Origin: a virus
Lineage: Duplodnaviria > Heunggongvirae > Uroviricota > Caudoviricetes
IMG/VR virus record: IMGVR_UViG_3300045988_157791
DNA length: 64,000 nucleotides
Strand: one strand, 5' to 3'
Shown one piece after another: positions 3,325 through 63,999 of the stretch (its first letter is position 1; the number at the start of each line of letters is the position of its first letter). The position numbers and the translations under genes were made by a program. The notes under the pieces are model-generated. The model did no database searches. It was given only the letters and a program-made list of their open reading frames with translations, and had not been told where the DNA came from.

Positions 3325-3720
3325 TTAAGCGAATACGCTTTCAGGGATTAAGGTGTCAGCAGGAATGCCGGAGGTAATGCGCAGGCCGTACTGACCAATC
3401 CAGGTAGTGTTGGTATTCAGGCTGGAGGCGAATACGGTGTTAACCATATTCATCATGGTTTCAAACACCTCTTCATCAACCTGGCGGAAGTAGTTCTCGA
3501 TTTTCAGCAGCAGCGGGTCAGTTGCATCGAAAATAGACTGGTATTGAGTCGCGTACTCGCCGCCGGAGGCATCACCTTTACGCACGATCGTACTGGCCTG
3601 GACTTCGGCACCAGTTTCGGTGTTGTACGTAACAACGGTGATTTTTGCCACATTCTTACCTTCGGCGGTTTCAGAGGCATAGTAAACATCAACTGTCAGT
3701 TTTTCGCGTTTAACGGTCAT
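3325..3720 (-). CDS. hypothetical protein (131 aa)
   Basis: ATG with GGAGAG SD (MTVKREKL...). Confidence 0.5.
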   Translation of the reverse strand: MTVKREKLTVDVYYASETAEGKNVAKITVVTYNTETGAEVQASTIVRKGDASGGEYATQYQSIFDATDPLLLKIENYFRQVDEEVFETMMNMVNTVFASSLNTNTTWIGQYGLRITSGIPADTLIPESVFA

Positions 3721-3782
3721 TTCACTCTCCGTAGTGTATTGGTTATTTTTATATTCTATGATCGTAAGTATGTACTTACAAT

Positions 3783-3812
3783 ACAAAAAAGCCCCGTAAG
3801 GATGGCGGGGCT
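3783..3812 (-). terminator. rho-independent terminator
   Basis: Hairpin GCCCCGtaaggatggCGGGGC followed by a U-run on the minus strand. Confidence 0.6.
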
Positions 3813-3846
3813 GTCGTACGGTCGACTAATTACCACTTGCACATTA

Positions 3847-4158
3847 TCAGGCTATTGCCATCACTGATGCTCTCTGAATCTCTTGCTGGGCCACGCGGTT
3901 AACTTCCATCAAAGCCAGTTCGAGCTGATGTTCCGGCCACATTCTTTGAAATGCCACCCAGCCTTTTCCACGCTGGCGACGAACATTCATTACATAACGA
4001 GTAAAGGTGTTTTTATCGAAAGACACCGCTGTTTCACGGAATAGACGAATAGAGGTTCCATTGGCAACGATATCCAGCAAAGTTAATTGAGCAACCAGTG
4101 CAGGCTTCTCTTTTCTCTTCTGGTCTTTGTCCAGACCAAGAACCAATGATTTTTTCAT
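3847..4158 (-). CDS. hypothetical protein (103 aa)
   Basis: Track ORF begins at a TTG; ATG with GGAG SD chosen (MKKSLVLG...). Confidence 0.45.
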   Translation of the reverse strand: MKKSLVLGLDKDQKRKEKPALVAQLTLLDIVANGTSIRLFRETAVSFDKNTFTRYVMNVRRQRGKGWVAFQRMWPEHQLELALMEVNRVAQQEIQRASVMAIA

Positions 4159-4165
4159 CACAACT

Positions 4166-4215
4166 CCGTAAACAACTTGTTTTCTCAATGGCGTAAATAA
4201 TACCAGTAAGAAAAC
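4166..4215 (-). promoter_or_regulatory. conserved promoter/leader motif (copy c, variant)
   Basis: AAACAACTTGTTTTCTCAATGG. Confidence 0.45.
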
Positions 4216-4311
4216 GGCTACAAAGCATATTGATCAGGTGCATGAGCGATATGCAGGTTCTTCCCTGCGGCTATAGAGAAATTAAGCCAGCAAAGCTGGC
4301 TTTGGTTGGGG

Positions 4312-4641
4312 TTACTCGAATACTTCAAGAAACTCCTGAACGTCCCAATGCTGGACGAGGTGAAGATAGACCTTAGAAATCACGTCATTTTCGCTATCGC
4401 ATGTGAAGTAGTACTTCTGGCTGCGGTTGTATGTGTCCACACAAAATTCGCTCATATCCATAAAGTCAGCATCTTCACCCATGTCGCAAATCATCAAAGC
4501 AGGTGCGTCATCACGAGTCATCAGCTCAAGCACCCACCGCGAATTGATCAGAGTGGAAGACCAACCTTCTAACTCATAAAACTGATCAAACTCTTTTTGA
4601 GTTAATTTCTTGATTTGGTTGATGTCGATATTTGCAAACAT
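4312..4641 (-). CDS. hypothetical protein (109 aa)
   Basis: ATG start (MFANIDINQ...) directly downstream of motif copy d. Confidence 0.5.
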   Translation of the reverse strand: MFANIDINQIKKLTQKEFDQFYELEGWSSTLINSRWVLELMTRDDAPALMICDMGEDADFMDMSEFCVDTYNRSQKYYFTCDSENDVISKVYLHLVQHWDVQEFLEVFE

Positions 4642-4651
4642 AAAGCAACCC

Positions 4652-4708
4652 TTAAACAACATGTTTTCTTATTGGTGTTATTATCGCAATAACGCATAGG
4701 CGAAAAAG
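4652..4708 (-). promoter_or_regulatory. conserved promoter/leader motif (copy d)
   Basis: AAACAACATGTTTTCTTATTGGTGTTATTATCGC...GGCGAAAAAGG. Confidence 0.55.
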
Positions 4709-4999
4709 GATTTTATTCCGGTGAATGTGGTTTTGGCAGTGAGTTTTCAGGTTCAGTACCGAGTACACTTTTTACATTATTCTGATTTAGTAGCCGAAGG
4801 TGGCTGGTGGGCAGAATAATCATCTCCCCGAAAACCTACTGAAATCGATTGTGACCCGTTGGCTGTCTGGCACAATTACGCTGTAGCTGGGCATTCAGAG
4901 GGAATCCAGCGGTAAGTAAGTTCGCCTGCACGTGAGCGCCTCTCTTCTTCCCGCACATTACAGGTGGGTAGCCGCAACTCTCCCTCTCGCTATACCGGT

Positions 5000-15591: not shown

Positions 15592-17277
15592 TCATTTAAC
15601 GCGTTTGAAAACGTATACGCTGACTGTGATCCCTGTGTCTTCAAACTCGTTGGTAAACGACTTCCCTCTGGCATAAACGTAATTATCCATCGTCATCCAG
15701 TCCAGTATTGGCGCAGTGCCCGGCAATACTGCTACAAGACGCCCGCCGACTTTCAGATGCCCCAGCGCAGCCAGCGTGTGCTCTCTATGACGACCAAGCG
15801 AGTACGGCGGGTTCATAACGATTTTGTCGAACTGATAACCTACGTTGTCCTCAGACCACTTTATGAAGTCGCAGCAAATCGTGTTCGTATACCCTTTTCC
15901 GCGCAGGATATCAGCGAAGAGAGGTGCGATTTCTATGCAGGTAACATCTTCCAGATCGGCGTTGATATAGGCCAGAAGATCCCCACGTCCGGCTTGAGGC
16001 TCCAGCAGCTTCTCACCAGACTTCAATTCAGTGGCTCTGGCAACGTACTCAGCAATCAAGCGTGGGGTAGGGTAGAACTGGTGTGATTTTGTATCCGGTA
16101 TTAATCCGGTAGCCACAATCGTATTTAGCGTATGGCCGATCTCATACGGGAACTGCCAGTGCTTTTTCTCCTGCACGCCGCCAATGAAGCTCAGTGTGCG
16201 CTCAAGCTCTTCCACCTGCGACTTCTGGAGAGCTGAATCAGAGAAGTACCATACGCCTTTGTCTTTGCTTAATCGCCCGTCACGAAGCGCAGTGCGAACC
16301 GGCACGGAGATCGTCTTCTGGATTAACCCGAACTGCTTTGGTGCCCGTGTTTTTGGCGCGGTGCGACATGGCGCGGGGATTGCAGCAGGCATACTGTAAG
16401 CCAGCACCTCATTCAACTTCCAGGCCACGTCAGGATGTATTTCAAAGTGAACGTTGCCGTTCTTGAACATCTTCACGCGCATTAGATTTCCATCGACGTT
16501 CATCCAGTCACCGGTCTGGCAGTCGTTTGCCCGATACGCAGCTGATAGCACCTCAGCAGTGCGGTTGATGGTAATAAATTCTTTGTGCGCGAAGAAATGA
16601 AGCAAGACACGCAGATCGTCGATATAGTCCTCTTTGCGATAGTTCACACTAACGCTGTCCCGCCAGAAATCAGAAATGCAGTCAGCGATTATCAGACGTT
16701 CGCTGAAACCGTTTGTCTTATTTGTCTTGTGCGCAGGACTCAGCGCCTTAAACAAGCCATACACGCGCTCAGAGAGATATTTGTGCCTGTCATTCAGCAA
16801 ATTAAGCATCGTGGGTATGACCGTTTCTGCTTTGAACTCCGGTACACCAACGAACTCTTTAACCTTCATCTGGTAGCCGGTTCTGTCAGTTTTGATGACT
16901 TCCTGTTTGCCCTCTATAAACTGCTCGCGCCACTCATCTCGACGGGAAGCTGGCATGATCAGCAAAACGTTAGTCATGTCCGTGACCTTCCTCCAGTACT
17001 CGGCCCAAATATTCTGTTTCACCCATTCCAGATCGACTTTATCCAACCAACCTCGATTTAAACGCGAGCGATCTTCATCTGGTCGATGGTTTAGTCTCAG
17101 CAGGCGATTAATCATGTTGTGGCGTTCGTCGCCATAAACGAAGTCGTGTACCTGATACATGAAGGCGATCTCTTTCTCGCACTCGGCCACAATTTCGTGG
17201 ATGACGTTCATTTCCTGCCGATAGTCGATAGCAGTGTTTGAGTTGGCATCGTCGATGATGGAAAGGGCTGTATTCAT
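15592..17277 (-). CDS. fusion protein: uncharacterised N-terminal domain plus C-terminal N6-adenine DNA methyltransferase (561 aa)
   Basis: C-terminal FYPTP...EPQAGRGDLL (SAM-binding-like) and NPPY catalytic motif; roughly 380-aa N-terminal region without recognisable motifs. Confidence 0.7.
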   Translation of the reverse strand: MNTALSIIDDANSNTAIDYRQEMNVIHEIVAECEKEIAFMYQVHDFVYGDERHNMINRLLRLNHRPDEDRSRLNRGWLDKVDLEWVKQNIWAEYWRKVTDMTNVLLIMPASRRDEWREQFIEGKQEVIKTDRTGYQMKVKEFVGVPEFKAETVIPTMLNLLNDRHKYLSERVYGLFKALSPAHKTNKTNGFSERLIIADCISDFWRDSVSVNYRKEDYIDDLRVLLHFFAHKEFITINRTAEVLSAAYRANDCQTGDWMNVDGNLMRVKMFKNGNVHFEIHPDVAWKLNEVLAYSMPAAIPAPCRTAPKTRAPKQFGLIQKTISVPVRTALRDGRLSKDKGVWYFSDSALQKSQVEELERTLSFIGGVQEKKHWQFPYEIGHTLNTIVATGLIPDTKSHQFYPTPRLIAEYVARATELKSGEKLLEPQAGRGDLLAYINADLEDVTCIEIAPLFADILRGKGYTNTICCDFIKWSEDNVGYQFDKIVMNPPYSLGRHREHTLAALGHLKVGGRLVAVLPGTAPILDWMTMDNYVYARGKSFTNEFEDTGITVSVYVFKRVK

Positions 17278-17380
17278 AATTGCACCATTAAGAAGTGATT
17301 TGTTTAATGGTGCAATTATTTCAAAAATGAAAAGGTACTAAATAGAAATAAACAGGCAATCCTTCAAATAAAGGCATTGG

Positions 17381-18279
17381 CTAATCATACTTGGAGGTAT
17401 TTATCACCAGAATTTTGTTTGTATAAATCTTCTTAATATCCCATGTGACATTACCGGAATACCATTGACCGTTATATACTTGGTTTCCAGTTGCACCTGT
17501 CATTGTTACATAGACAGGTCTGTCGTAATCGGTTCGTCTATAGTTATATACCCCAACCATAGCAGGCATTACCGCACATGGATACCCCATATCTATTGTA
17601 AATTGAGGGTCAGAAATAGTGATAAGTTTCGCATCAAGGGGCATCATCTCACCGTGATACACCATTGCGCCTGCGCTGTTATACATGGCAATGCCATAGC
17701 CAGAATGTGGTAACACCATATCAGAAAAAGCATAAACTGTTATTGTTCCGGGGCTACCATTTACCTGATGCAATCTGAGAGCATTGTATCCGTTACTATG
17801 CTCATGAATAAACATCATGTTCGCCTTATTACTGCTTTTTATGAAGAAAAAGCATGATTTGTTTGATGGGATTGATGTTTGAAAAACAGAACCTTTAGAT
17901 GTAGACATTGTCCCTTTATTAATCAGATTTTGCGGAGTAAATTCTGGACTCATCCACAAACTTCCATCTGATTGAGTAATTGACATCCCGAACATAATTA
18001 TCCCCAGTATGTGTATATGTAAGAACCAAGCCCCGTATATAAATTTGACCAACTAACCGTATTTCCATTAATAGTAACTGTTGGAACAGGTAAATTAATG
18101 TAGTTGTCGTTGTTAAGAGGCATCAATGACCACACGGCATGTAGCGATTTACCCGGTGGCGGATTGGAGTACGTCTTAGAGCCTGATGACGCAGTAAATC
18201 GATCAAGAAAAAAAATAGGAGTAAGGAAGCCAGTAACGTTAATTCCTTTATTGTTGTAAATCCCTGTACCGTATGCCAT
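17381..18279 (-). pseudogene. frameshifted gene for a Tyr/Asn/Gly/Thr-rich protein (two overlapping ORFs of 93 and 223 aa)
   Basis: ORFs 17998-18279 and 17381-18052 overlap in different frames with similar unusual composition; AT-rich. Confidence 0.4.
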
Positions 18280-18334
18280 TTTTCATCCTTGTTTTTTATC
18301 AACACAATATGGCCGATCATGCGGCCATATCAGA

Positions 18335-18904
18335 TCAATTAGAGCTTTGAAAGGCTTTGTGTGGCTGTGTTGCGAGGTTATGTCGATGGCTTAACTCACG
18401 CATCATGTCTTCAAGCCGACTCTTTGTGTCGTCGAGTTGGTCGGCCATTGCTCCCAAAAGCTGACGAACGGCCATCGGATCATCGCTGTTTAGTGATGGC
18501 ATTTTATAACCCGCCTGAGAAGACATAAGATTGAACGCAGACATCAACATCGTTAGAGAGGATTTAAGCCCAGCAATTTCACGATCTTTGCTGGCAATAA
18601 TCGCCTCACTCTTGTTAGTGTCATCAGTTCGTTGAGTCTCGCTCACCATATCCAAAGTCGCCTGCAACTTATCAGCGCGCTCTTTTTCAGCAAGATAATG
18701 AACACCGAAATGATGTGCTAAAGCTACAACCTGAGTTGGCTCTTCAAAGGTGGACTCAAAATTAAGTGCTGTAACCACTCTCTCAAATATGGAAACGTCT
18801 TCTATTCCTCGAAGAATGGCTAACATTTTGACCAGTTCATTAGCATCCATTTCTTCGAATAAGGCGTTTTGTTCATCAGCTATCGCTTTGCATTTCTTGC
18901 ACAT
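18335..18904 (-). CDS. hypothetical protein (189 aa)
   Basis: ORF with conserved initiation context; motif copy f upstream. Confidence 0.5.
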   Translation of the reverse strand: MCKKCKAIADEQNALFEEMDANELVKMLAILRGIEDVSIFERVVTALNFESTFEEPTQVVALAHHFGVHYLAEKERADKLQATLDMVSETQRTDDTNKSEAIIASKDREIAGLKSSLTMLMSAFNLMSSQAGYKMPSLNSDDPMAVRQLLGAMADQLDDTKSRLEDMMRELSHRHNLATQPHKAFQSSN

Positions 18905-18918
18905 GTGTTTTTCCTAAT

Positions 18919-18970
18919 GCTTAAACAAGTTGTTTTCTTATTGGCTTTATTGTGATGTGGCATAAAAGGG
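18919..18970 (-). promoter_or_regulatory. conserved promoter/leader motif (copy f)
   Basis: TTAAACAAGTTGTTTTCTTATTGG...GGCATAAAAGG. Confidence 0.55.
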
Positions 18971-19201
18971 GAGCAAGCTAAACGTAAAGGTGCAAACTCT
19001 CTATTTCGGTCAACGAAACACAAGGGCCATTTGGCCCTTGTCATTAACACGTTGCTTTACGGACTAGCGGATAAGCGAAGTAGATCGCCAGACCAATGAG
19101 GACGCCATCAGAAATGACAGACATCATCTTTCCCGTAAAATCCACCAACACCGCCATCACCAGAAGAGCAATGACGGTCACAAGCCGGAATCTCTCAAGC
19201 A

Positions 19202-19627
19202 TTAGAGATAAGCATCCAGTGACAACTGAAGCGCCTGTGCGATCTTTTTCAGGGCCAGCTCTTCTTGTTCGCCAATACCGTCTTGGTCGGCAATATCAAG
19301 GCACAGACACAGTACATCTACTGCATCATTAGTCCCGGCCACATCAGCCAGCTCACGTAAAGCCTGGGCATTAGCGCGGCGCGGTGAGGCTTCGTATTGA
19401 GCACGGATATTGGCGCTCATTTGGGCAATCTCACCAGCAAACGGAGAAAACGCAGGCAGAGCTGCAATTGTTTTCTCAAGAATGGAAATTTCCTTTGCGT
19501 CGCATGTGCCATCGGCATAGGAGATCATGTACGCGCCCCACACGGTGGCTTCAACCGCATCTCGGTTCTCCATTTTTTTGACCTCGATAACAGCTTTACG
19601 AGTTTTCTTTTTGAATAAACCTAACAT
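19202..19627 (-). CDS. TerB-like domain protein (141 aa)
   Basis: All-alpha protein with acidic DxxDG/EQEE pattern typical of the TerB fold (by recollection). Confidence 0.5.
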   Translation of the reverse strand: MLGLFKKKTRKAVIEVKKMENRDAVEATVWGAYMISYADGTCDAKEISILEKTIAALPAFSPFAGEIAQMSANIRAQYEASPRRANAQALRELADVAGTNDAVDVLCLCLDIADQDGIGEQEELALKKIAQALQLSLDAYL

Positions 19628-26486: not shown

Positions 26487-27590
26487 TCACACCGCCACTG
26501 GAACCTTGATCCACGATAGAGGGTCATAGCCAAGAATTAAAACCTCGTCCCATTTGAAATCATCCAACTCTGACCATTCATGAGGGAAAATAACGACCGG
26601 ATCTGAATGCTCTGGAGCCTGTCGTTTCATTAGCTCACACACACCTTCCATGTGGTTGTTGTACAAATGCACGTCAAAGCCAAAATGCACAAATGCACCG
26701 GCCATGTGACCCGTAATCTTCGCGAGAAAATGAGTGAGAATGCCATAGCCAGCAATATTGAATGGCATACCAACAAAAGTGTCTACGCTACGCTGTACGA
26801 GGCAGGAGTTGAGGATGCGTTTGGGGATTCCAAGTTCATCCAGTTCAGCTTCAGTAACACTGCCGTCCATCTCCAGATCGTATAGCATCTTGGTGTAGAT
26901 AGACTCGTAACCGAGGCGACTGTGTTGAAGACCAATGTCAGTTGCCATCGTTAAACGGGTTTCAAAATCCAGCTCACGACTCCACAAAGAGAAGACAAAG
27001 TGGCAAGGTGGCAGTTTCATATCCTCAAGCTCGCCTACGTTCCATGCGTTAAGCATGATGCGACGATCGGTAGGGTTCGTGCGCAGTGTATCGACAATAC
27101 GCTGTAGCTGATCGATTTCACGGGACAGCACTACGCGATCTTCACTGATACCCAGGTATCCCTCGACTTTGTACCCGCGTTCACGGAAAGTAGCGATCTT
27201 GCTCAGATATTCACTATGGCTCACGATGCGGGTATCTTCCCATCGACGCCACTGCTTACCGTAAACCGGCCCCAAATCGCCATTCTCATCGGCCCATGCA
27301 TCCCAAATCTTAACGCCGTTATCCTTGAGAAATTGGATGTTGCCCGTGCCTTTCAGATACCACTCAAGTTCGACAAGCAGTGGCTTAAGATTTACCGCCT
27401 TTCCAGAAATAAGCGGCACAGTCCCACCAGTAAGCATGTAGTAAGAGGGAACGTAGCAGGTGCTTAAAGTACCAGTGCCTGTGCGATCATCAGCCTGCAC
27501 GCCGCTTTTAAGCACCGTCTCAATAACTTTTGCATACGATGCGTTTGTTACCTGACCGTTCGTATGCTCACGATTCAAAAGGAGTGACAC
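26487..27590 (-). CDS. thymidylate synthase family enzyme with two large insertions (start uncertain, probably GTG)
   Basis: DRTGTGT, WADENGDLGPVYGKQWR, AWNVGELEDMKLPPCHF (catalytic Cys), QRSVDTFVGMPFNIAGY, GYDP..IK.PVAV; about 100 residues more than E. coli ThyA. Confidence 0.8.
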   Translation of the reverse strand: MSLLLNREHTNGQVTNASYAKVIETVLKSGVQADDRTGTGTLSTCYVPSYYMLTGGTVPLISGKAVNLKPLLVELEWYLKGTGNIQFLKDNGVKIWDAWADENGDLGPVYGKQWRRWEDTRIVSHSEYLSKIATFRERGYKVEGYLGISEDRVVLSREIDQLQRIVDTLRTNPTDRRIMLNAWNVGELEDMKLPPCHFVFSLWSRELDFETRLTMATDIGLQHSRLGYESIYTKMLYDLEMDGSVTEAELDELGIPKRILNSCLVQRSVDTFVGMPFNIAGYGILTHFLAKITGHMAGAFVHFGFDVHLYNNHMEGVCELMKRQAPEHSDPVVIFPHEWSELDDFKWDEVLILGYDPLSWIKVPVAV

Positions 27591-42815: not shown

Positions 42816-43889
42816 TTACTCTTCTACTGACTCGGTGGGGTTGTCTTTTGCTCTTCGGTCGTCGATTGCCTGCAAAGCCGCAATGATTTCAGCCAGTGGC
42901 TTCTCCCGATACATCTCAACGATCTGCGATTTGGTGTATTTCTTGTCACCAATTTCAACTCGCCCGCTGGCGTTCTTTGGCAGGTATCCTTCTTCCAGCA
43001 TGTACTCGACGAGCGATTCGATAACGTCGAGGCCACGAGTAGGATCGAAGTAGAATTTCCAGGTGCATTTGCCATACGGTGGTGCAACTTTGTTTTTGAT
43101 GCATTCTGCGCCTACGTCCTGGCCGATCTTCTCTTTACCATCCTTCATCACCGATGCACCAAGACGGATACGTACAGAAGCGTAGAACTTCGGTGAATCT
43201 CCACCTGGCGACGTAGTAGGGTCGCCAAACATTACACCGATTTTTGTGCGAACCTGATTCAAGAAGATGATGCAGGCGTTGTATTTGCGTGCCCACAAAG
43301 CCAGAGTAGGGAAGTTCGCACTCGTCGCACGAGCCAGTGCCGTATTGTCGTTCATGTTTAGCTGATCTTTGTCTTTGGCAGTGCCTTCAGCCATCTTTTC
43401 GAACTTCTCGGCTTTGGAGTTCGGAACCATAGACGCAAGAGAGTCAGCCACGATACAGATAGGTGCTGATTCGGGGATAAGCTCTTCATCACGAACCAAT
43501 TTAAGTATTGTGCCGATCAACTCTACAGAGTCTTCGAAGGTATCTGGCTGCTTGTATACCCACTGACCGTCATCCTCATCTGCGTTCAGGCCATTGGCTA
43601 CAGCCAGGCCAACGTCAAAACTGTTTTCATGATCGAGGAATACCGCCAGACCATCTTGTTTTTGAGCGGAGATCATCGCTGCTGTTGCAAGGAACGTTTT
43701 CCCTGCACTTGGAGGACCGAATACTTCGACGATACGACCACATGGGAAGCCGCCATCGTAACGACCAGAAATAGCTTTGTTTAACGGTGGAAAGCCTGTA
43801 TCAATCCAATGAGTTACTTTCTGAATTTCGTCGTTGCTACCGATTTTCTTTTTCAGAGCAAGTGCCAGTGCGGATTTTCCTTTTGCCAT
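42816..43889 (-). CDS. RecA/UvsX-like recombinase
   Basis: Walker A GRIVEVFGPPSAGKTFLA in a RecA-like N-terminal context. Confidence 0.7.
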   Translation of the reverse strand: MAKGKSALALALKKKIGSNDEIQKVTHWIDTGFPPLNKAISGRYDGGFPCGRIVEVFGPPSAGKTFLATAAMISAQKQDGLAVFLDHENSFDVGLAVANGLNADEDDGQWVYKQPDTFEDSVELIGTILKLVRDEELIPESAPICIVADSLASMVPNSKAEKFEKMAEGTAKDKDQLNMNDNTALARATSANFPTLALWARKYNACIIFLNQVRTKIGVMFGDPTTSPGGDSPKFYASVRIRLGASVMKDGKEKIGQDVGAECIKNKVAPPYGKCTWKFYFDPTRGLDVIESLVEYMLEEGYLPKNASGRVEIGDKKYTKSQIVEMYREKPLAEIIAALQAIDDRRAKDNPTESVEE

Positions 43890-43891
43890 GA

Positions 43892-44164
43892 TCAGGCTCC
43901 TTTTGTTTCGTTGATTCGTTTTAAAGCGGCGGATTCATCGAATACAATCGCATCGTGGTTAAGGAGTCTGGATACACGAGCGAGGATTTTTACGACCTGC
44001 TCGCTGACTAATCCAAACTCGCGATCTGTCGCTTTCATTCCGGCAGCGCCTAGAATTGACGGCAGTGCGATGACAGCGTACTCACCGTGATAAAAGACAA
44101 TCTCTTTTGCCAGTTGGGCAGGGGTGGTTGTAGCGCCATTGATAATCGATTTAAGCATTAGCAA
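43892..44164 (-). CDS. hypothetical protein (90 aa)
   Basis: ORF between the FEN and RecA-like genes. Confidence 0.4.
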   Translation of the reverse strand: MLMLKSIINGATTTPAQLAKEIVFYHGEYAVIALPSILGAAGMKATDREFGLVSEQVVKILARVSRLLNHDAIVFDESAALKRINETKGA

Positions 44165-45102
44165 TACCTTTCGAATGGAAGAACAAACACTTCAAGGTCT
44201 TCAAGGAACGAACGGAAATTCAGCTCGTAGCACAGTTGCTCGAATGCTTTCACGTCACGATTGCCTTTGATTGTTTCGATTTCGGTAGGCGGAAACTTCG
44301 TCTCAATCAGGTTCATTAGCGTGATGTTTCTCTTGAACGCTTCGAGCATTCGACAGCCTGTTTTCTCGTTGAAGGCATTCTTCGCTAGTTTGTTGAAGGC
44401 GGTCTTATGACGCCCTTTATTAACCACGATTGAGCCGTCGTTGATGCCGCGTACCATCGTTGCGACACTTCCCCATTCATGCAGCAGCTCTTTCGCACCG
44501 CCAGCACCAATGCCACCAACACCGCTAATGTTGTCCGAGTTATCGCCTTGTAATGCTTTTGCTTCCAAAAATGCGCGAGGCGTGGCGAATCCTGTCAGCT
44601 CCGCAAATTGCTCAAAATTAACCTGCTTGTTTTTGGCGTCTTCACGCAGGCTTACCCAGCTTACGTTTTCACGAACTAACTGAAGCCAGTCGCTATCGCC
44701 TGTTAACAGATAGATGTGTTCAACGGTTGGCTGCGGTGCCATGCGGGATACCAGCAGCCCGGCCAGATCATCCGCTTCTGCATCTTTTGCAATGAGTTGG
44801 GTAACTCCAAGCGCGGTCATCATTTTGAGGATGTATGGCTTCTGGATAGCAAAGCCTTCCTTCATCTTTTTCATATCAGGATCGTCGTCGCGATTTGCTT
44901 TGTAGTCCGGGTAAAAGTCGCGACGCTTGTCACTAAATCCATCCCAAAGAATCATAGGTCGGGCATGGAGGATGGAGGCATAACGACGGACGTTCTTAAC
45001 AAAGCCGAAAGCAGCCTGTACTTCCATTTCGCCGTTGTGCAATTTGTCAGATTGTTGGTGGTAATAACCCAGGCTATTGCCATCTACGAAGAGATAATTC
45101 AC
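44158..45102 (-). CDS. 5'-3' exonuclease / flap endonuclease (start re-placed to a GTG)
   Basis: FEN motifs FVDGNSLGY, EADD, GDSDWLQL, helix-hairpin-helix GVGGIG; the longer track ORF would run through the upstream terminator. Confidence 0.75.
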   Translation of the reverse strand: MNYLFVDGNSLGYYHQQSDKLHNGEMEVQAAFGFVKNVRRYASILHARPMILWDGFSDKRRDFYPDYKANRDDDPDMKKMKEGFAIQKPYILKMMTALGVTQLIAKDAEADDLAGLLVSRMAPQPTVEHIYLLTGDSDWLQLVRENVSWVSLREDAKNKQVNFEQFAELTGFATPRAFLEAKALQGDNSDNISGVGGIGAGGAKELLHEWGSVATMVRGINDGSIVVNKGRHKTAFNKLAKNAFNEKTGCRMLEAFKRNITLMNLIETKFPPTEIETIKGNRDVKAFEQLCYELNFRSFLEDLEVFVLPFERYC

Positions 45103-45126
45103 CGGTACATTCCTTCCAAAAAGTAA

Positions 45127-45150
45127 GGCGTCCGTAGACGCCTTACTGGT
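45127..45150 (-). terminator. rho-independent terminator (GGCGTCC...GGACGCC family)
   Basis: TAAGGCGTCcgtaGACGCCTTA followed by a U-run on the minus strand. Confidence 0.6.
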
Positions 45151-45162
45151 CACGTAATGGGA

Positions 45163-46191
45163 TTACAGAGAGTCCAGCTCTCTCAGTAGGTCATCCAGAC
45201 CTTCGTCTTCCGTCGCAGATGCGGCTGCTACAGATGTCGCTGCGACTGCTTCAGACTCTTTGACTGATACGGCAACGGCAGCGGAACTTGCTTCTGGTTT
45301 AAATTCAGTTTCAACGGCACGGAGGATTTCTTCATCAACCAGACTGGTTGGTTCAGAAGCTGGGGTGTGAGCGGTTGCTACAGCAGTCGCACCCTCCGTA
45401 TGACCAGTGACAGAGCCAAATCCAGGTAGTGCCGCAGCCGATGTTTTCGCGGTTGAGGAAATTGCTGGTGCAGATGCTGCGGCAGTTGGTGCAGCGATGC
45501 CAATCAGACGACCCATAGTGCGAACTGTCGACAGAAGACGAGTTTCATCAGCCTGATTTGCGTATGCGATCAGATCATGCTGGGTGTTCCAGAATTTATC
45601 TTCGATATCGCCTTTGTAGACTTTACGCTTAGGCGAGACGTCATATTTGGTATCGCGACCAGAGCCAGTACGTTTAATCAGGAATGCGTAGCCTTCCTCT
45701 TTGCTCAGTGGATTGCCGATATCATCAGCGATGTCTTCGGTGATTGCTTTGCAGATATCATCGAATACAGTAGACGGCAGCTCGATTAACTGGCATTTCT
45801 CAGCATCTGCGAAATCCTCACGAGCAGAAAGAATGCCGTTGACCAGGTAGCGAGGAGTGGCACGCATTTGACCGATGCGTTCTTCCATTGCTTTGTTACC
45901 CTTGTGACGAGCGCGACCTTCCATAACCATTTCGCATAGCTGACAAGCGCGACCGTGAGTATGTTGCTCACAAATATAAGCGTTGGTTGCTTCTTTACCT
46001 TCCTCGTTCTGATACTTAACGTAGTGCATACCGAAAGTCTGGAAGAACTTACCGTTTGGGTCGTCTTTATTCGGGAAGATGCGGATATAGTTGACGCCGT
46101 CTTTTAAGCGAGTCAGATCAACGTTGTTGCCACGTTTGGCGGCAATGTCTTCACGAGTTTTGTTAAGCAAATCAAGTAATGTCTTAGACAT
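45163..46191 (-). CDS. putative ssDNA-binding protein (gp32-like)
   Basis: Cys/His cluster CEQHTHGRACQLCE, Ala/Ser/Thr-rich linker, acidic C-terminal tail. Confidence 0.5.
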   Translation of the reverse strand: MSKTLLDLLNKTREDIAAKRGNNVDLTRLKDGVNYIRIFPNKDDPNGKFFQTFGMHYVKYQNEEGKEATNAYICEQHTHGRACQLCEMVMEGRARHKGNKAMEERIGQMRATPRYLVNGILSAREDFADAEKCQLIELPSTVFDDICKAITEDIADDIGNPLSKEEGYAFLIKRTGSGRDTKYDVSPKRKVYKGDIEDKFWNTQHDLIAYANQADETRLLSTVRTMGRLIGIAAPTAAASAPAISSTAKTSAAALPGFGSVTGHTEGATAVATAHTPASEPTSLVDEEILRAVETEFKPEASSAAVAVSVKESEAVAATSVAAASATEDEGLDDLLRELDSL

Positions 46192-46308
46192 GTGTTTCTC
46201 CTTGTTGTGATTTGGCCGATGGCGCTATGCGCGTTGGGCTTTCGTTCATTCGTGGCTCTTTCGAGCTGTTAAATGATAGATCAGTACTTACTTATTATCT
46301 ATCAAAAA

Positions 46309-46740
46309 TCAACGGGGAGTAATAAAGCGTTCAGAGCCTAATCGCTCTAATTCAACGATGGCCATCTTTGACGCCTGAACGATCATGTCTCGGCGATGCG
46401 AAAAGGCGGCGACAGCATGTTTGTATATGTCTGCGATGTGCCGTGCTTCATCCAACTTCTGCCGTTTAGACAGATACTGTGGGTTTGTTTTAACCTTAGC
46501 GTCCAGTACAGACTCGTTGAACTTAATGCCGTTCATACTCAAGTTCTTACGCTCTGTGTCGTATAGCTTTGCTTCAACAGCTTCAAGGTTAAGTTTTGCC
46601 TCTGCGACATCTCGATCTGCCTGCGCTAGTTTTGACCCATACTCCATTAAAAGCCGTGGCTGTTTACGCCATACTTCCTCAAGGTTGTCGCGGTCGAACT
46701 CCAGATCGGCCATGATTTTAGAAAAAATATCAGTGTTCAC
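46309..46740 (-). CDS. hypothetical protein (143 aa)
   Basis: ORF. Confidence 0.45.
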   Translation of the reverse strand: MNTDIFSKIMADLEFDRDNLEEVWRKQPRLLMEYGSKLAQADRDVAEAKLNLEAVEAKLYDTERKNLSMNGIKFNESVLDAKVKTNPQYLSKRQKLDEARHIADIYKHAVAAFSHRRDMIVQASKMAIVELERLGSERFITPR

Positions 46741-52390: not shown

Positions 52391-53626
52391 TTAACCAAAT
52401 ATTTTTTGAACAACTTCACGAGCCGCTTGCGCAGAAGCTGAAGGGAGTTTGTTAATGAAAGAACGCTCAATACCTGTCACAAAGTCGCCTCGCATCATTC
52501 CAATCTTGGCCGACAACAAAAGTTCACGAGGGCCAATTGGCTGACTGATAAGGTGTTCTTCGTATCCATCGCGAACGATACCGGCAAACTTAACCATCTT
52601 TTCTGCGTATTCATCCACGATACCGGCATTTATCAACATGTTGATCTCTGCCTCTTTGCTCATGTATTTCACATTCGAAACGATGCCAAAACGCGAAAAG
52701 TTCGCGGCGTTCTGGATGTTTGTACCCTGGTACAAGCCGGTTTCATCACCAGATCCGTTCGTGTTGCCAGTGCCAATGAAAGCAAACCGTTCATGCGGAG
52801 TAATGCGACGCCATTCTGGAGTCGCCTCTTTGATGACCAACGCTTCACCTTCCAGCACTGGCTGATACACGCCAAGAATCTGTGGAAACGCAAAGTCGTA
52901 TTCATCCGCGAGGTAAACCCAGCCATGCTTCATTGCGAGCGCAAGCAAGCCAGGCTCGAAATACGTAGAGCCATCACGCGCCAGAATTTGCCCCGTAACA
53001 TGTGCCTCTTCCATTGATGCTGTATGTTGGGCACGGATCAACGGACGATTGAGCAAAGCACATAGCTGTGTAGGCAATGACGATTTGCCTGTTCCTGCAT
53101 GACCCCACAAATAGCCAGGTATGCCAAGTTCAAGCATCATGAAAATATCTTTGATCAGTTCGAAGTCGCCATATACGTAGCCCTTCTTCACTTCTGGAAC
53201 GAACTCTGGATACGGCGTATTGACGTTGACGCTAACCATGAGCGGCGTCCCACGTTTTGTTCCGAGTTCTTCCACCGTTACGTTTAGCAGTTCGTGAGCT
53301 GCGACCAGATCTGTCTTGTACTCAACTGTGCCTGTGTAGCCTGGGCTACTGGTCAAGCCAGAAGATTTCGCCATTTCGCTTTTTTGCTCGGCACGTTTAG
53401 CTTGAATTGCATCAAGTGCCTTTTTCGATAGCGTTGGTTCATCTGGAAACTGCGTTGTGTACATTTTCAGTACGGTGTCAGGATCGGCATCTTTTACTGA
53501 CTCAGGAATGCCCTCGCAATTACCATTGGCTACATGGGACTTAAAATAGTGAAATGATTTGCCGCACCACTTGCAAACAAGGTAATCAGAAGGATTTTTA
53601 TCATTTTGCAGTGCAGTAGTAGTCAT
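52391..53626 (-). CDS. CobS-like AAA+ ATPase (MoxR family)
   Basis: Walker A GHAGTGKSSL in an AAA_5-like context; adjacent to a vWA protein as in phage CobS/CobT pairs. Confidence 0.6.
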   Translation of the reverse strand: MTTTALQNDKNPSDYLVCKWCGKSFHYFKSHVANGNCEGIPESVKDADPDTVLKMYTTQFPDEPTLSKKALDAIQAKRAEQKSEMAKSSGLTSSPGYTGTVEYKTDLVAAHELLNVTVEELGTKRGTPLMVSVNVNTPYPEFVPEVKKGYVYGDFELIKDIFMMLELGIPGYLWGHAGTGKSSLPTQLCALLNRPLIRAQHTASMEEAHVTGQILARDGSTYFEPGLLALAMKHGWVYLADEYDFAFPQILGVYQPVLEGEALVIKEATPEWRRITPHERFAFIGTGNTNGSGDETGLYQGTNIQNAANFSRFGIVSNVKYMSKEAEINMLINAGIVDEYAEKMVKFAGIVRDGYEEHLISQPIGPRELLLSAKIGMMRGDFVTGIERSFINKLPSASAQAAREVVQKIFG

Positions 53627-53721
53627 GCGCTTTTCCTTTGTTCTCTAATGAGCGTTCAAGTTCTTATATAAATATACCATTAACTATGGTAAGTAGTTAC
53701 TTATCATTAAGGCTGTTTTAA

Positions 53722-55830
53722 TTACTTCAAAATGATACGAGATAGTTCAGTAACTACAGATGAACCAAGACTATCAACACTAGTTACCAGGGCATGATTT
53801 GCGTAAAATCTCTCCGGTGCATCAGTCATGATGCCAATTGCCATCAAATCAATGTCAGTCTGCGTTTCAATTTGCTTCGTAACCGAACGCAAATGGGCGT
53901 CAAAACCTCTCCCAACAGCCCACGGCGCGCCATCGCTCAGAACAAGCATGATCTTCCTGTCCTCCAAGCGACCGGAAAATAACGATGCAAGGCTGGCTAT
54001 GCTTTCACCATCCACGTTATTAAGAAGTGGGAATGTGTAGCCTACGCACCCCATACGTGAGCGAACTTCGCGAGAATTTGCTTTTTCATTCCAATTTTTG
54101 ATGATAGGTAGCATTAAAGATTCAAAGCGAGAGAACTCATATTTGATAGCCTTAAGTTCTCCTGCTGCCATATGACTGCCAAATGTAGTGAAGCCGGTGA
54201 TAATGTTGGGAACATTTATTCGATCAAGTGCATCGGCGATGGTATATGCACTTGCAAGAGCTAGTTTTATCGTTTCGCCACTCATTGAACCCGATAAATC
54301 AATCACTTGTTGAACACAGGCGTTAACGGCTTTAGATTCTTCTTTTTTACGAAACACGCGATCATCATTCATTGTTAATCTGTAGATACTTGAACCATGA
54401 ATGCGCCCCCGACGCTGGCCAGGTATAAACTGAACTCTGTTTCTGCTTGCTATTGCACGTTCCAGGTCTTTTGCCAGCGTCGACGAAACACCTGACGAAA
54501 GGTGCTTTTCAATATATTTGTCGAAGAGTTGGTTGCCTTCAGGAACGATGCGATAACGGCTGATTGGATATCCACCTAAATCAATATCGGAGAATGTTTT
54601 AATAAGCCGTTTGATATGGGCTTCTGCCTGATCAATCGAGCCGATGAAGTCGTATGAGCGATTGTATGGCCTGTATTCGCTTTTCGAGCTTTCTGTTAAC
54701 TCGCTTTTAATCGTTTCGGATAGCGCATCTTCTGTCATGCCTCCGACTTCATCTTCCATGCTATCCAACTCCTCTAAAGCCTCTTCCAGACTCATTTTTG
54801 ACGGAGTTGGAATGTCTGAAGAGCCGTCTTCTGTCGTTTTTCTTTTTTCGTGGTCAGCGGTTAATGATTCTGACGCCGCGTTATCAGAAGCATCAGAATC
54901 TGATACCGCTTTATCATTTTCTGTATCATCGAATATTGTTTCTGATGATTCAGGATTATCTGAATCATCACTGTCGTTATTATCATGTTTGTGCTTACTA
55001 TGTGACTCTGATTTAATAGATTTGTGATTATCTAACGATGAGGGTGTCTCATGATCTTCGTTGTCTTCATTGTTTTCTCCAGAGGCATCCGTCTGGTCAG
55101 CGTCTGAAGGATCGGAAGTTTTTCCCGGAGCTGACTCCTTACCTTTGCTTTCACTTTCAGTGTCTTTGAGGATCTTAGCTATGGTCGCAGCCACCTTTAC
55201 ACAATCCTCGGTGCAAGACATGTTACGCACGGCCACATCGATACCATGTTCTTTTAATAATGAAATTGGTTTCTCAATGACAGGCCAATATTCATCCATG
55301 AAATCTACGAACGGTGCTTGGCCATCCCAGGCTCTTACAACCGGACAGAGAAAGAAGTTTAGAAAAAGCGCGCGCTGATCTTTGCCACAATAAGCAATAG
55401 CCTCTGAAGCCTTTGGTTTAAAGACTTTTTCGATTATAAGGCGCTGAGTTGCCATCAGATTACGTCTTGTTCCGTTAAAGACCTGACCCATTTTTCGCTC
55501 GATGAACACGTCTTCTAAGGCATTCCATAGCGACCAGGAAGGAACGCGTCCTTTTTCTCTCATTTTGTTGGACACACGAATATCGGTAAACAAAATGTGA
55601 GCAACCTCATGATCGAGAAATCCGCGCACAGCATTCATCAATGCCGGTGTTGCGTTATCCGGGATTGATGGGATGTTTACGAGAATTGGCTCTCCATCAT
55701 CGTTATAGCGTACATAAGCGTCGTCCCCTCGTTCTGCAACAGGGATGTTTTTACCTGAAAGGAGAGCGACTACTCGTTTTACACTGTCACGGAAGTCCTG
55801 AACCTCTTTGATGGAACGTTTTTTAGACAT
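53722..55830 (-). CDS. CobT-like protein with C-terminal von Willebrand A domain and acidic central region
   Basis: MIDAS motif DLSGSMSG; long Asp/Glu/Ser-rich low-complexity region. Confidence 0.55.
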   Translation of the reverse strand: MSKKRSIKEVQDFRDSVKRVVALLSGKNIPVAERGDDAYVRYNDDGEPILVNIPSIPDNATPALMNAVRGFLDHEVAHILFTDIRVSNKMREKGRVPSWSLWNALEDVFIERKMGQVFNGTRRNLMATQRLIIEKVFKPKASEAIAYCGKDQRALFLNFFLCPVVRAWDGQAPFVDFMDEYWPVIEKPISLLKEHGIDVAVRNMSCTEDCVKVAATIAKILKDTESESKGKESAPGKTSDPSDADQTDASGENNEDNEDHETPSSLDNHKSIKSESHSKHKHDNNDSDDSDNPESSETIFDDTENDKAVSDSDASDNAASESLTADHEKRKTTEDGSSDIPTPSKMSLEEALEELDSMEDEVGGMTEDALSETIKSELTESSKSEYRPYNRSYDFIGSIDQAEAHIKRLIKTFSDIDLGGYPISRYRIVPEGNQLFDKYIEKHLSSGVSSTLAKDLERAIASRNRVQFIPGQRRGRIHGSSIYRLTMNDDRVFRKKEESKAVNACVQQVIDLSGSMSGETIKLALASAYTIADALDRINVPNIITGFTTFGSHMAAGELKAIKYEFSRFESLMLPIIKNWNEKANSREVRSRMGCVGYTFPLLNNVDGESIASLASLFSGRLEDRKIMLVLSDGAPWAVGRGFDAHLRSVTKQIETQTDIDLMAIGIMTDAPERFYANHALVTSVDSLGSSVVTELSRIILK

Positions 55831-63612: not shown

Positions 63613-63699
63613 TGGCGGAGAGTAATGGAATCGAACCATCATCGCTTGCGCAATGGGACGGTTTTCAAGACCGCTTGAGCACCATGCTCCCTACTCTCC
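63613..63699 (-). tRNA. tRNA-Ser (anticodon UGA), class II with long variable arm
   Basis: Folded by hand: 7-bp acceptor GGAGAGT/ACTCTCC, anticodon loop CUUGAAA, variable arm CATTGC-GCAA-GCGATG, T-loop GGTTCGATTCC, 3' GCCA; D-arm atypical. Confidence 0.6.
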
Positions 63700-63923
63700 G
63701 GCCGTTGTGGTGGCCGGTACTGAATCTCCGGCATACGGTGCAGCCAATTAGGACTACGGACGATCACCGCTCGCGAAAGGGAAGATTTGCGGCCGCATTT
63801 CCCTAACATCCAAGAAAGCTATCGCATCAGTCTGCGAATCCACCACAACGGTAAGATCACTACCTTTCGACCAGTCATTGTGCACATGAACGACGATTAA
63901 CCGTAATGATCTTATCGTTGTAT

Positions 63924-63999
63924 TGGTGCCGGTTAGCGGACTCGAACCGCTGACATCCTGCTTACAAGGCAGGCGCTCTACCAACTGAGCTAAACCGGC
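63924..63999 (-). tRNA. tRNA-Thr (anticodon UGU)
   Basis: Folded by hand: acceptor GCCGGTT/AACCGGC, D-arm GCTCAGTTGGTAGAGC, anticodon loop CUUGUAA, T-arm AGCGGTTCGAGTCCGCT, discriminator A plus CCA. Confidence 0.7.

Follow-up and report, generated by a model that had tools for sequence, protein, structure and literature searches.

The two overlapping minus-strand open reading frames at positions 17381-18279 of the window (the whole 64,000-nucleotide stretch of DNA analysed here) are, with near certainty, two independent genes with no frameshift between them. Hereinafter designated ORF A and ORF B, they probably form a conserved split receptor-binding module made of two intact, coupled genes. 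A preliminary description had treated them as a single gene of roughly 300 codons broken by a frameshift; that reading gives way to two intact genes, although its underlying intuition has a basis in that the two products align, in order, to single-chain proteins of about 315 residues.

Two reading frames and their junction

Two minus-strand ORFs of 93 and 223 aa are indeed present in different frames, with ORF B in the -1/+2 frame relative to ORF A. The Tyr/Asn/Gly/Thr-rich composition first noticed in both is borne out by the counts: these four residues make up 41.9% of ORF A (z = 6.8) and 30.4% of ORF B (z = 3.3), the corresponding figure for 30 long window ORFs being 19.7 ± 3.3%. The AT-rich patch is equally real, with a GC content of 0.389 across 17381-18279 versus a window mean of 0.453 (7th percentile among 899-nt windows), and the beta-rich character attributed to the pair agrees with structure prediction, which gives ORF B an all-beta fold.

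Table 1. Features of the A/B pair in window coordinates
Feature	Position	Strand	Description
ORF A	17998..18279	minus	93 aa, ATG start; small subunit, phrog_557 match
ORF B	17381..17995	minus	204 aa from the ATG at 17995; predicted all-beta subunit, phrog_425 match
ORF B as listed by ORF calling	17381..18052	minus	223 aa from a TTG at 18052
A/B coupling junction	17993..18005	minus	GGGGA, TAA, 2 nt, ATG; sequence read directly
AAATTTA heptamer	18040..18046	minus	A_AAT_TTA in frame A; slippery-looking

ORF A ends in ...TAC TGG GGA TAA, its stop codon lying at 18000-17998, and ORF B opens with ATG TTC GGG ATG TCA, its start codon (17995-17993) following 2 nt past that stop. A Shine-Dalgarno-like GGGGA (18005-18001), contributed by the Trp-Gly codons of ORF A, sits at the usual distance 5' of the ORF B ATG. 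Such a tight stop-start arrangement, with the Shine-Dalgarno element drawn from the end of the upstream gene, is predicted to be a case of ordinary translational coupling: the ribosome would terminate ORF A at TAA and initiate ORF B 2 nt further on, after GGGGA, with no recoding. The 55-nt overlap and the 223-aa length arise because ORF calling mechanically takes the first in-frame TTG, and the pattern of conservation places the start of ORF B at the ATG rather than at this TTG.

Each ORF aligns end to end with its own PHROG family, ORF A with phrog_557 ('outer membrane protein'; residues 1-93 on profile positions 1-92 of 100, E 4.7e-29) and ORF B with phrog_425 ('membrane associated protein'; residues 1-204 on positions 3-224 of 224, E 2.2e-72). 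Neither sequence contains a signal peptide, a lipobox or a transmembrane segment, which leaves both family labels unsupported; the maximum 19-residue Kyte-Doolittle value of ORF A is 0.94. PADLOC and NCBIfam returned no match for ORF A or ORF B. In annotated relatives the region is always called as two genes, one of 282 nt and one of 606-615 nt. A survey of homologue lengths across 5.8 billion clustered proteins gave ORF A relatives of 93-94 aa; at identities as low as 49%, ORF B relatives measured 203-206 aa, the exceptions being fragments and a single 216-aa protein. No fused form of about 300 aa turned up in this survey among close relatives of either. That A relatives of about 93 aa and B relatives of about 204 aa are separate genes is an outcome which the preliminary description itself had named as contrary to a disrupted gene. 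The two-gene arrangement is kept down to 29-49% identity.

The junction was compared across 15 loci. A and B are adjacent in all 15, and in all 15 the ORF A stop and the ORF B ATG fall at one and the same boundary, marked by a TGGGG[AG]/TGGAGA motif in every locus except SSU5. An N-terminal M-[FY]-G follows the ATG of ORF B in every lineage. The spacer between stop and start measures 2 nt in the window, Cyrano, JenP1, tunus and locus L006, 5 nt in PhiR41_1 and the Stx phages, -1 nt in SSU5 (ATAATG), and 3 nt in loci L005 and L009-L011, where B lies in frame 0 of A behind a stop codon (TGG AGA TGA ATT ATG). The relative frame of B is 0 in these two lineages and +2 elsewhere, and this variation in spacing and frame is incompatible with a conserved -1 frameshift. 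As a separate observation on annotation, the start of SSU5_024 seems to have been placed 41 nt too far downstream (SSU5 record 26610-26652); the ATG that overlaps the SSU5_023 stop codon restores the M-Y-G N-terminus of the family.

Recoding, decay and sequence error as alternatives

Both genes evolve under purifying selection, with pN/pS of 0.12-0.28. When substitutions in the overlap were counted among the window, PhiR41_1 and JenP1, 23 of 25 were synonymous in frame A (the last 18 codons of ORF A), while 21 of 23 codon changes in frame B were non-synonymous. This pattern indicates that the overlap is read in frame A only and that both genes are selectively maintained.

A programmed -1 ribosomal frameshift at A_AAT_TTA, yielding an A-B fusion of about 300 aa either alone or beside free A, is highly improbable. 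The search for slippery sequences called for in the preliminary description returned this heptamer as the only slippery-looking site in the A/B overlap. It has the X_XXY_YYZ form when read in frame A, frame B stays open back to 18052, B occupies the -1/+2 frame in most lineages, and single-chain homologues of about 315 aa are known. The heptamer is nevertheless poorly kept: the window, Cyrano and PhiR41_1 have it, JenP1 carries G_AAC_TTA (TCG AAC TTA) in its place through synonymous changes, and the Stx-phage, tunus, L005 and L006 junctions lack it. No stimulatory RNA structure is predicted 3' of it (minimum free energy -8.7 kcal/mol, z +1.9, with 199 of 200 shuffles folding at least as well). 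Frame B upstream of the ATG is unconserved as protein, as the overlap counts indicate, whereas the C-terminus of ORF A beyond the heptamer, YTGLGSYIYTYWG, which a shift would drop, varies little or not at all among close relatives. The frame-0 position of B behind a stop codon in L005 and L009-L011, and the retention of the ORF B ATG and M-[FY]-G in every lineage, likewise speak against recoding. Judged by these comparisons, the heptamer appears to be a chance site and not a conserved recoding signal. The pair resembles the lambda G/GT type of -1 frameshift as a tail-related pair in the -1 relation with an X_XXY_YYZ heptamer, but differs from it in that neither slip site nor frame is conserved, the overlap lacks a coding signal in the second frame, and ORF B owns a conserved start codon.

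Still more remote is the idea that one gene of about 300 codons was recently inactivated by a frameshift (a pseudogene) or was split by an assembly or sequencing error. Adjacent ORFs that are alike in composition yet lie in different frames would look this way, and frameshifted ORF A variants (P0030 and P0038) do occur among public assemblies. Against this, the identical sequence is found in dozens of independently assembled plasmids and phages, with at least 99% identity in 54 plasmid records, and the junction holds no homopolymer of the kind suspected at first. The persistence of the two-gene layout to 29-49% identity, the purifying selection on both halves and the end-to-end match of each ORF to its own family do not fit decay, and the 5.8 billion clustered proteins include no close relative (>80% identity) with an uninterrupted ORF of about 300 aa. 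The two variants are of interest in themselves: P0030 switches frame in mid-protein and P0038 (116 aa) enters a third frame after WSNLE, and these internal frameshifts, which probably reflect errors of assembly or true pseudogenes, illustrate how a copy with a real frameshift looks.

Split and fused forms and their relation to known receptor-binding proteins

A profile search with the ORF B family recovered 114 relatives, most of them stand-alone proteins of 205-230 aa and about ten of them 307-325 aa long, with the B-like part starting near residue 100. Aligning both halves to a single homologue, a check proposed in the preliminary description, succeeded with these distant phage proteins of about 315 aa: in hhalign comparisons, residues 12-80 of the A family align with residues 14-80 of the fused family (probability 95.4%, E 1.7e-8), and the B family aligns with fused residues 101-310 (probability 99.5%, E 3e-22). 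Two fused proteins scanned against PHROGs contain phrog_557 in the N-terminal part and phrog_425 in the C-terminal part. The two fused-form genes examined start on the stop codon of a GpJ-like gene, and these GpJ-like genes carry FNIII-A_GpJ, Ig_J and Phage_Tail_Tip domains. On this alignment evidence A and B together are the split counterpart of the single-chain protein, separated by an old fission or joined by an old fusion, with ORF A corresponding to the N-terminal domain of the single-chain relatives; many phage lineages have kept the split state. From the fused homologues and the adjacency of the two genes in all 15 loci we infer that A and B form a heterodimer.

The same two families, in the same order and with the same tight stop and start as in the window, occur in FritzSarasin/Bas04 (bas04_0025-0024-0023) and in tunus (gp02-gp04). 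The tunus proteins are identical to those of the window at 49% (A) and 40.5% (B, residues 1-204 of 204 against gp04) over their full length, and bas04_0023 is 98.5% identical to tunus gp04. Tunus, L006 and FritzSarasin (BASEL) share the layout [89-102-aa lipoprotein]-[A]-[B], convergent with a J-like gene, and the small lipoprotein ORF upstream of A in tunus and L006 matches the Cor superinfection-exclusion family. In small siphophages, a 'bona fide RBP locus downstream of gpJ' tracks terminal-receptor specificity (Maffei et al. 2021, PMC8594841), a layout also given in a 2026 preprint (10.64898/2026.04.02.716166), and the terminal receptor of FritzSarasin was experimentally determined to be BtuB (S5 Table). 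The T1-like RBP loci adjoin gpJ and have a Cor-like lipoprotein upstream, whereas the window pair is without either; T1-like phages are lytic 50-kb siphophages, whereas the window pair belongs to a 110-kb temperate phage-plasmid. In passing, 11 records named 'Campylobacter phage' carry B-like genes, among them A139 (49.9 kb) with a protein 64% identical to that of tunus; these are more readily taken for T1-like coliphages that were mislabelled or came in as contaminants than for genuine Campylobacter phages.

The closest relatives from another lineage are gp22-gp21 of JenP1, JenP2 and BRET (Nonagvirus), at 76% identity for A and 83% for B; their annotations read 'outer membrane protein' and 'membrane associated protein'. 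JenP1 has the same 2-nt junction as the window, but there the pair comes immediately downstream of J, the central tail fibre gene, in convergent orientation, and lacks AAATTTA. SSU5_023, SSU5_024 and Cor share with the window the phage-plasmid backbone and the two PHROG families (E 7.6e-22 and 7.5e-44), yet this cassette is 27-30% identical to the window pair and sits between the tail-fibre adhesin and Cor/holin, in the order tail fibre, adhesin, A, B, Cor, holin. 933W-like Stx phages have the pair flanked by a Phage_Tail_Tip protein and lom, and the copies carried by short-tailed Stx phages are 61% identical.

A further setting was observed in three E. coli integrase/AlpA (P4-like) islands (L009-L011, at about 3708-4924), where tandem A-like paralogues of 93 and 94 aa are followed by a B-like gene of 211 aa, shortened to 147 aa in L009. 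A protein of about 730 aa comes after the B-like gene, with a TMP_3 match in one locus. These loci may represent a satellite or island with its own receptor-binding module.

The predicted fold is similar to that of the solved receptor-binding protein of phage Oekolampad (RBP-Oeko; PDB 9RPT; PMC12685063), a likeness found by fold comparison alone. Rtp44 and RBP-Oeko are single-chain proteins of about 310 aa with LptD as receptor, whereas the window encodes two chains; with structure-based sequence identity of about 10%, they and the window pair are separate families by a 30% identity criterion. ORF B weakly matches phrog_1265 (E 2.6e-6), partially, with residues 40-156 on profile positions 158-287 of 332, a profile that Rtp44 matches at E 9e-99. 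PDB sequence searches with the B-family and fused-family profiles returned nothing relevant, an hhalign comparison between the fused family and the Rtp44 sequence alone gave no signal (probability 0.1%), and a BFVD fold search with ORF B matched uncharacterised phage proteins only. One assignment was tried and set aside. The match of ORF B to Pfam DUF6453 (PF20051; 15.4 bits, E 0.012), the sole Pfam match of the pair, falls below the 25-bit gathering threshold; it had hinted at a single family of 291 aa, but neither an artificial A-B fusion nor natural fused homologues matched it. The resemblance to receptor-binding proteins suspected in the preliminary description is backed by the predicted fold and by the RBP-locus context in relatives, and on these comparisons the pair probably has a receptor-binding function.

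The pair in an SSU5-like phage-plasmid

The 1.3-kb stretch that carries the pair recurs at 100% identity in many 'IncFIB plasmids' of E. coli and E. albertii, about 107-112 kb in size, and 119 plasmid records match at least 80% of its length. Escherichia phages Cyrano and CMS-2020a share it at 98.7-99.5% identity, and in Salmonella phage SSU5 the match is limited to the flanking methylase gene. These plasmid and phage matches place the window in an SSU5-like phage-plasmid. The pair lies about 55 kb from the tail-fibre genes: in the 98.7%-identical Cyrano, J is at 17.7-22.4 kb and the A-B pair at 81.9-82.8 kb. Its neighbours in the window are accessory or early-type genes, namely a DUF4942 methylase and Ead/Ea22-like and TciA/TerB-like genes, and the J, tail-fibre or Cor homologue that marks an RBP locus is missing from its vicinity. 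Queries with the SSU5 and tunus Cor-like proteins (tblastn of the window) found no Cor-like lipoprotein, and no N-terminal signal sequence or lipobox is apparent in the translations of the ORFs on either side. The Cyrano tail locus runs from J through a tail fibre to a holin and does not contain the A-B-Cor cassette. Cyrano has one ORF B-like match and the window has one A-B pair. The C-terminus of the Cyrano J protein is 89% identical to that of SSU5 and 37.5% to that of JenP1, the J tips examined being 25-40% related to each other; with its SSU5-like sequence, the J tip apparently did not co-transfer with the A-B allele of the window. The low GC content and the 76-83% identity to the JenP1 proteins point to horizontal acquisition of the pair.

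Several other features of this neighbourhood were recorded. Directly upstream of ORF A, a 189-aa ORF (18335-18904, minus strand) matches phrog_5508 (function unknown) end to end with E 1.2e-111; Pfam, PADLOC and NCBIfam give it no assignment above threshold, and it does not accompany the A-B module in the loci of other phage lineages. Between ORF B and the DUF4942/N6-methyltransferase gene lies a perfect 16-bp hairpin (17276-17319, minus strand), composed of AUAAUUGCACCAUUAA, a 12-nt loop and UUAAUGGUGCAAUUAU, the 3' arm of which reaches the ATG (17277) of the methylase gene. Its minimum free energy is -28.3 kcal/mol (z = -5.8, with 0 of 200 shuffles folding as well), and it could occlude the methylase start or ribosome-binding site, or serve as an operator or terminator. 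A scan of 17000-19300 for promoters and terminators gave nothing above shuffle expectation. At the window edge (63613-63999, minus strand), genes for tRNA-Ser(tga) and tRNA-Thr(tgt) have their counterpart in the annotated tRNA cluster of Cyrano. Cyrano also carries annotated cobalamin-pathway enzymes (43137-46576; dimethylbenzimidazole phosphoribosyltransferase and cobalamin synthetase), a region equated with window 52391-55830 by matching ORF lengths rather than by alignment. The presence of cobalamin genes in Cyrano alongside an RBP type tied in T1-like phages to the cobalamin transporter BtuB may be a coincidence.

The accessory surroundings raise the alternative that the pair has no structural role and is an accessory ('moron') module, which the plasmid prophage might express for superinfection exclusion, defence or host modulation. 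This is unlikely, though far less so than a frameshift of either kind. In its favour are the phrog_425 category ('moron, auxiliary metabolic gene and host takeover'), the location among accessory genes far from the tail genes, the lack of a Cor-like exclusion lipoprotein partner in the window, the occurrence of the module in the P4-like integrase islands, and the low GC content. The PHROG category, however, is an annotation label rather than a test, and PADLOC finds no match. Having neither signal peptide, lipobox nor transmembrane segment, A and B could not reach the envelope, unlike Cor, Llp and Rtp45; the predicted fold equals that of a solved receptor-binding protein; and in lytic phages, which have no lysogenic conversion, it is this pair that holds the RBP locus.

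As a receptor-binding module, A and B would work as a two-chain RBP of the small-siphophage kind, docked non-covalently on the C-terminal tip of a GpJ-like central tail fibre. The 93-aa A would be equivalent to the N-terminal domain of the single-chain relatives and is probably an adaptor or assembly part, and the 204-aa B would provide a beta-sandwich body that touches a host outer-membrane protein. Being the only such module in the window and the only B-like match in Cyrano, the pair is most likely the terminal RBP of the virion, and probably replaces a lost SSU5-type A-B-Cor cassette. By analogy BtuB is a possible but rather doubtful receptor of the window allele, the experimental link to BtuB belonging to alleles that are 40% identical only. 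Among the Stx phages, phi24B has BamA as its reported receptor; together with the 61%-identical copies in such phages, this makes receptor assignment by homology weak. Among the papers returned by a literature search on the receptor of SSU5-like phage-plasmids, none deals with this allele, judging from titles and abstracts.

Much of this material is already known: the genes are widely deposited and found together in hundreds of phages, and both the RBP-locus concept and the BtuB link are published. Mildly new are the assignment of the pair in the SSU5-like phage-plasmids of E. coli, where its locus is non-canonical, the relation between split and fused forms, and the fold common to 'BtuB-type' and 'LptD-type' RBPs. 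As a frameshift candidate the region has no significance, there being no frameshift. Its interest lies in the annotation of hundreds of E. coli 'IncFIB plasmids' (SSU5-like phage-plasmids) and Stx phages, in which these genes are labelled 'hypothetical' or membrane proteins. Phage-plasmids are reported to spread resistance genes, and reading the pair as a tail-tip receptor-binding module bears on the prediction of phage-plasmid host range. The split/fused link, taken with the predicted fold shared with the LptD-binding protein, suggests a common origin for RBP families that have been treated as unrelated.

A more far-reaching proposal, which we put forward tentatively and regard as somewhat less likely to be right than wrong, is that the pair is a true two-chain RBP in which A supplies in trans the J-docking N-terminal domain that single-chain RBPs have in cis. 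Were this so, B would be an exchangeable cartridge, functional from any genomic position, which would explain the presence of the module in lytic T1-like and 9g-like siphophages, in short-tailed Stx phages, in SSU5-like phage-plasmids away from the tail genes, and in P4-like islands. It would also explain how E. coli phage-plasmids could lose the SSU5 cassette and switch to the window allele, and why 'BtuB-type' and 'LptD-type' RBPs, described as unrelated, have one fold and probably one ancestor. In the P4-like islands, the two A paralogues could then allow a satellite to retarget the tails of its helper, and the small A protein is a candidate docking adaptor with relevance for engineering receptor specificity.
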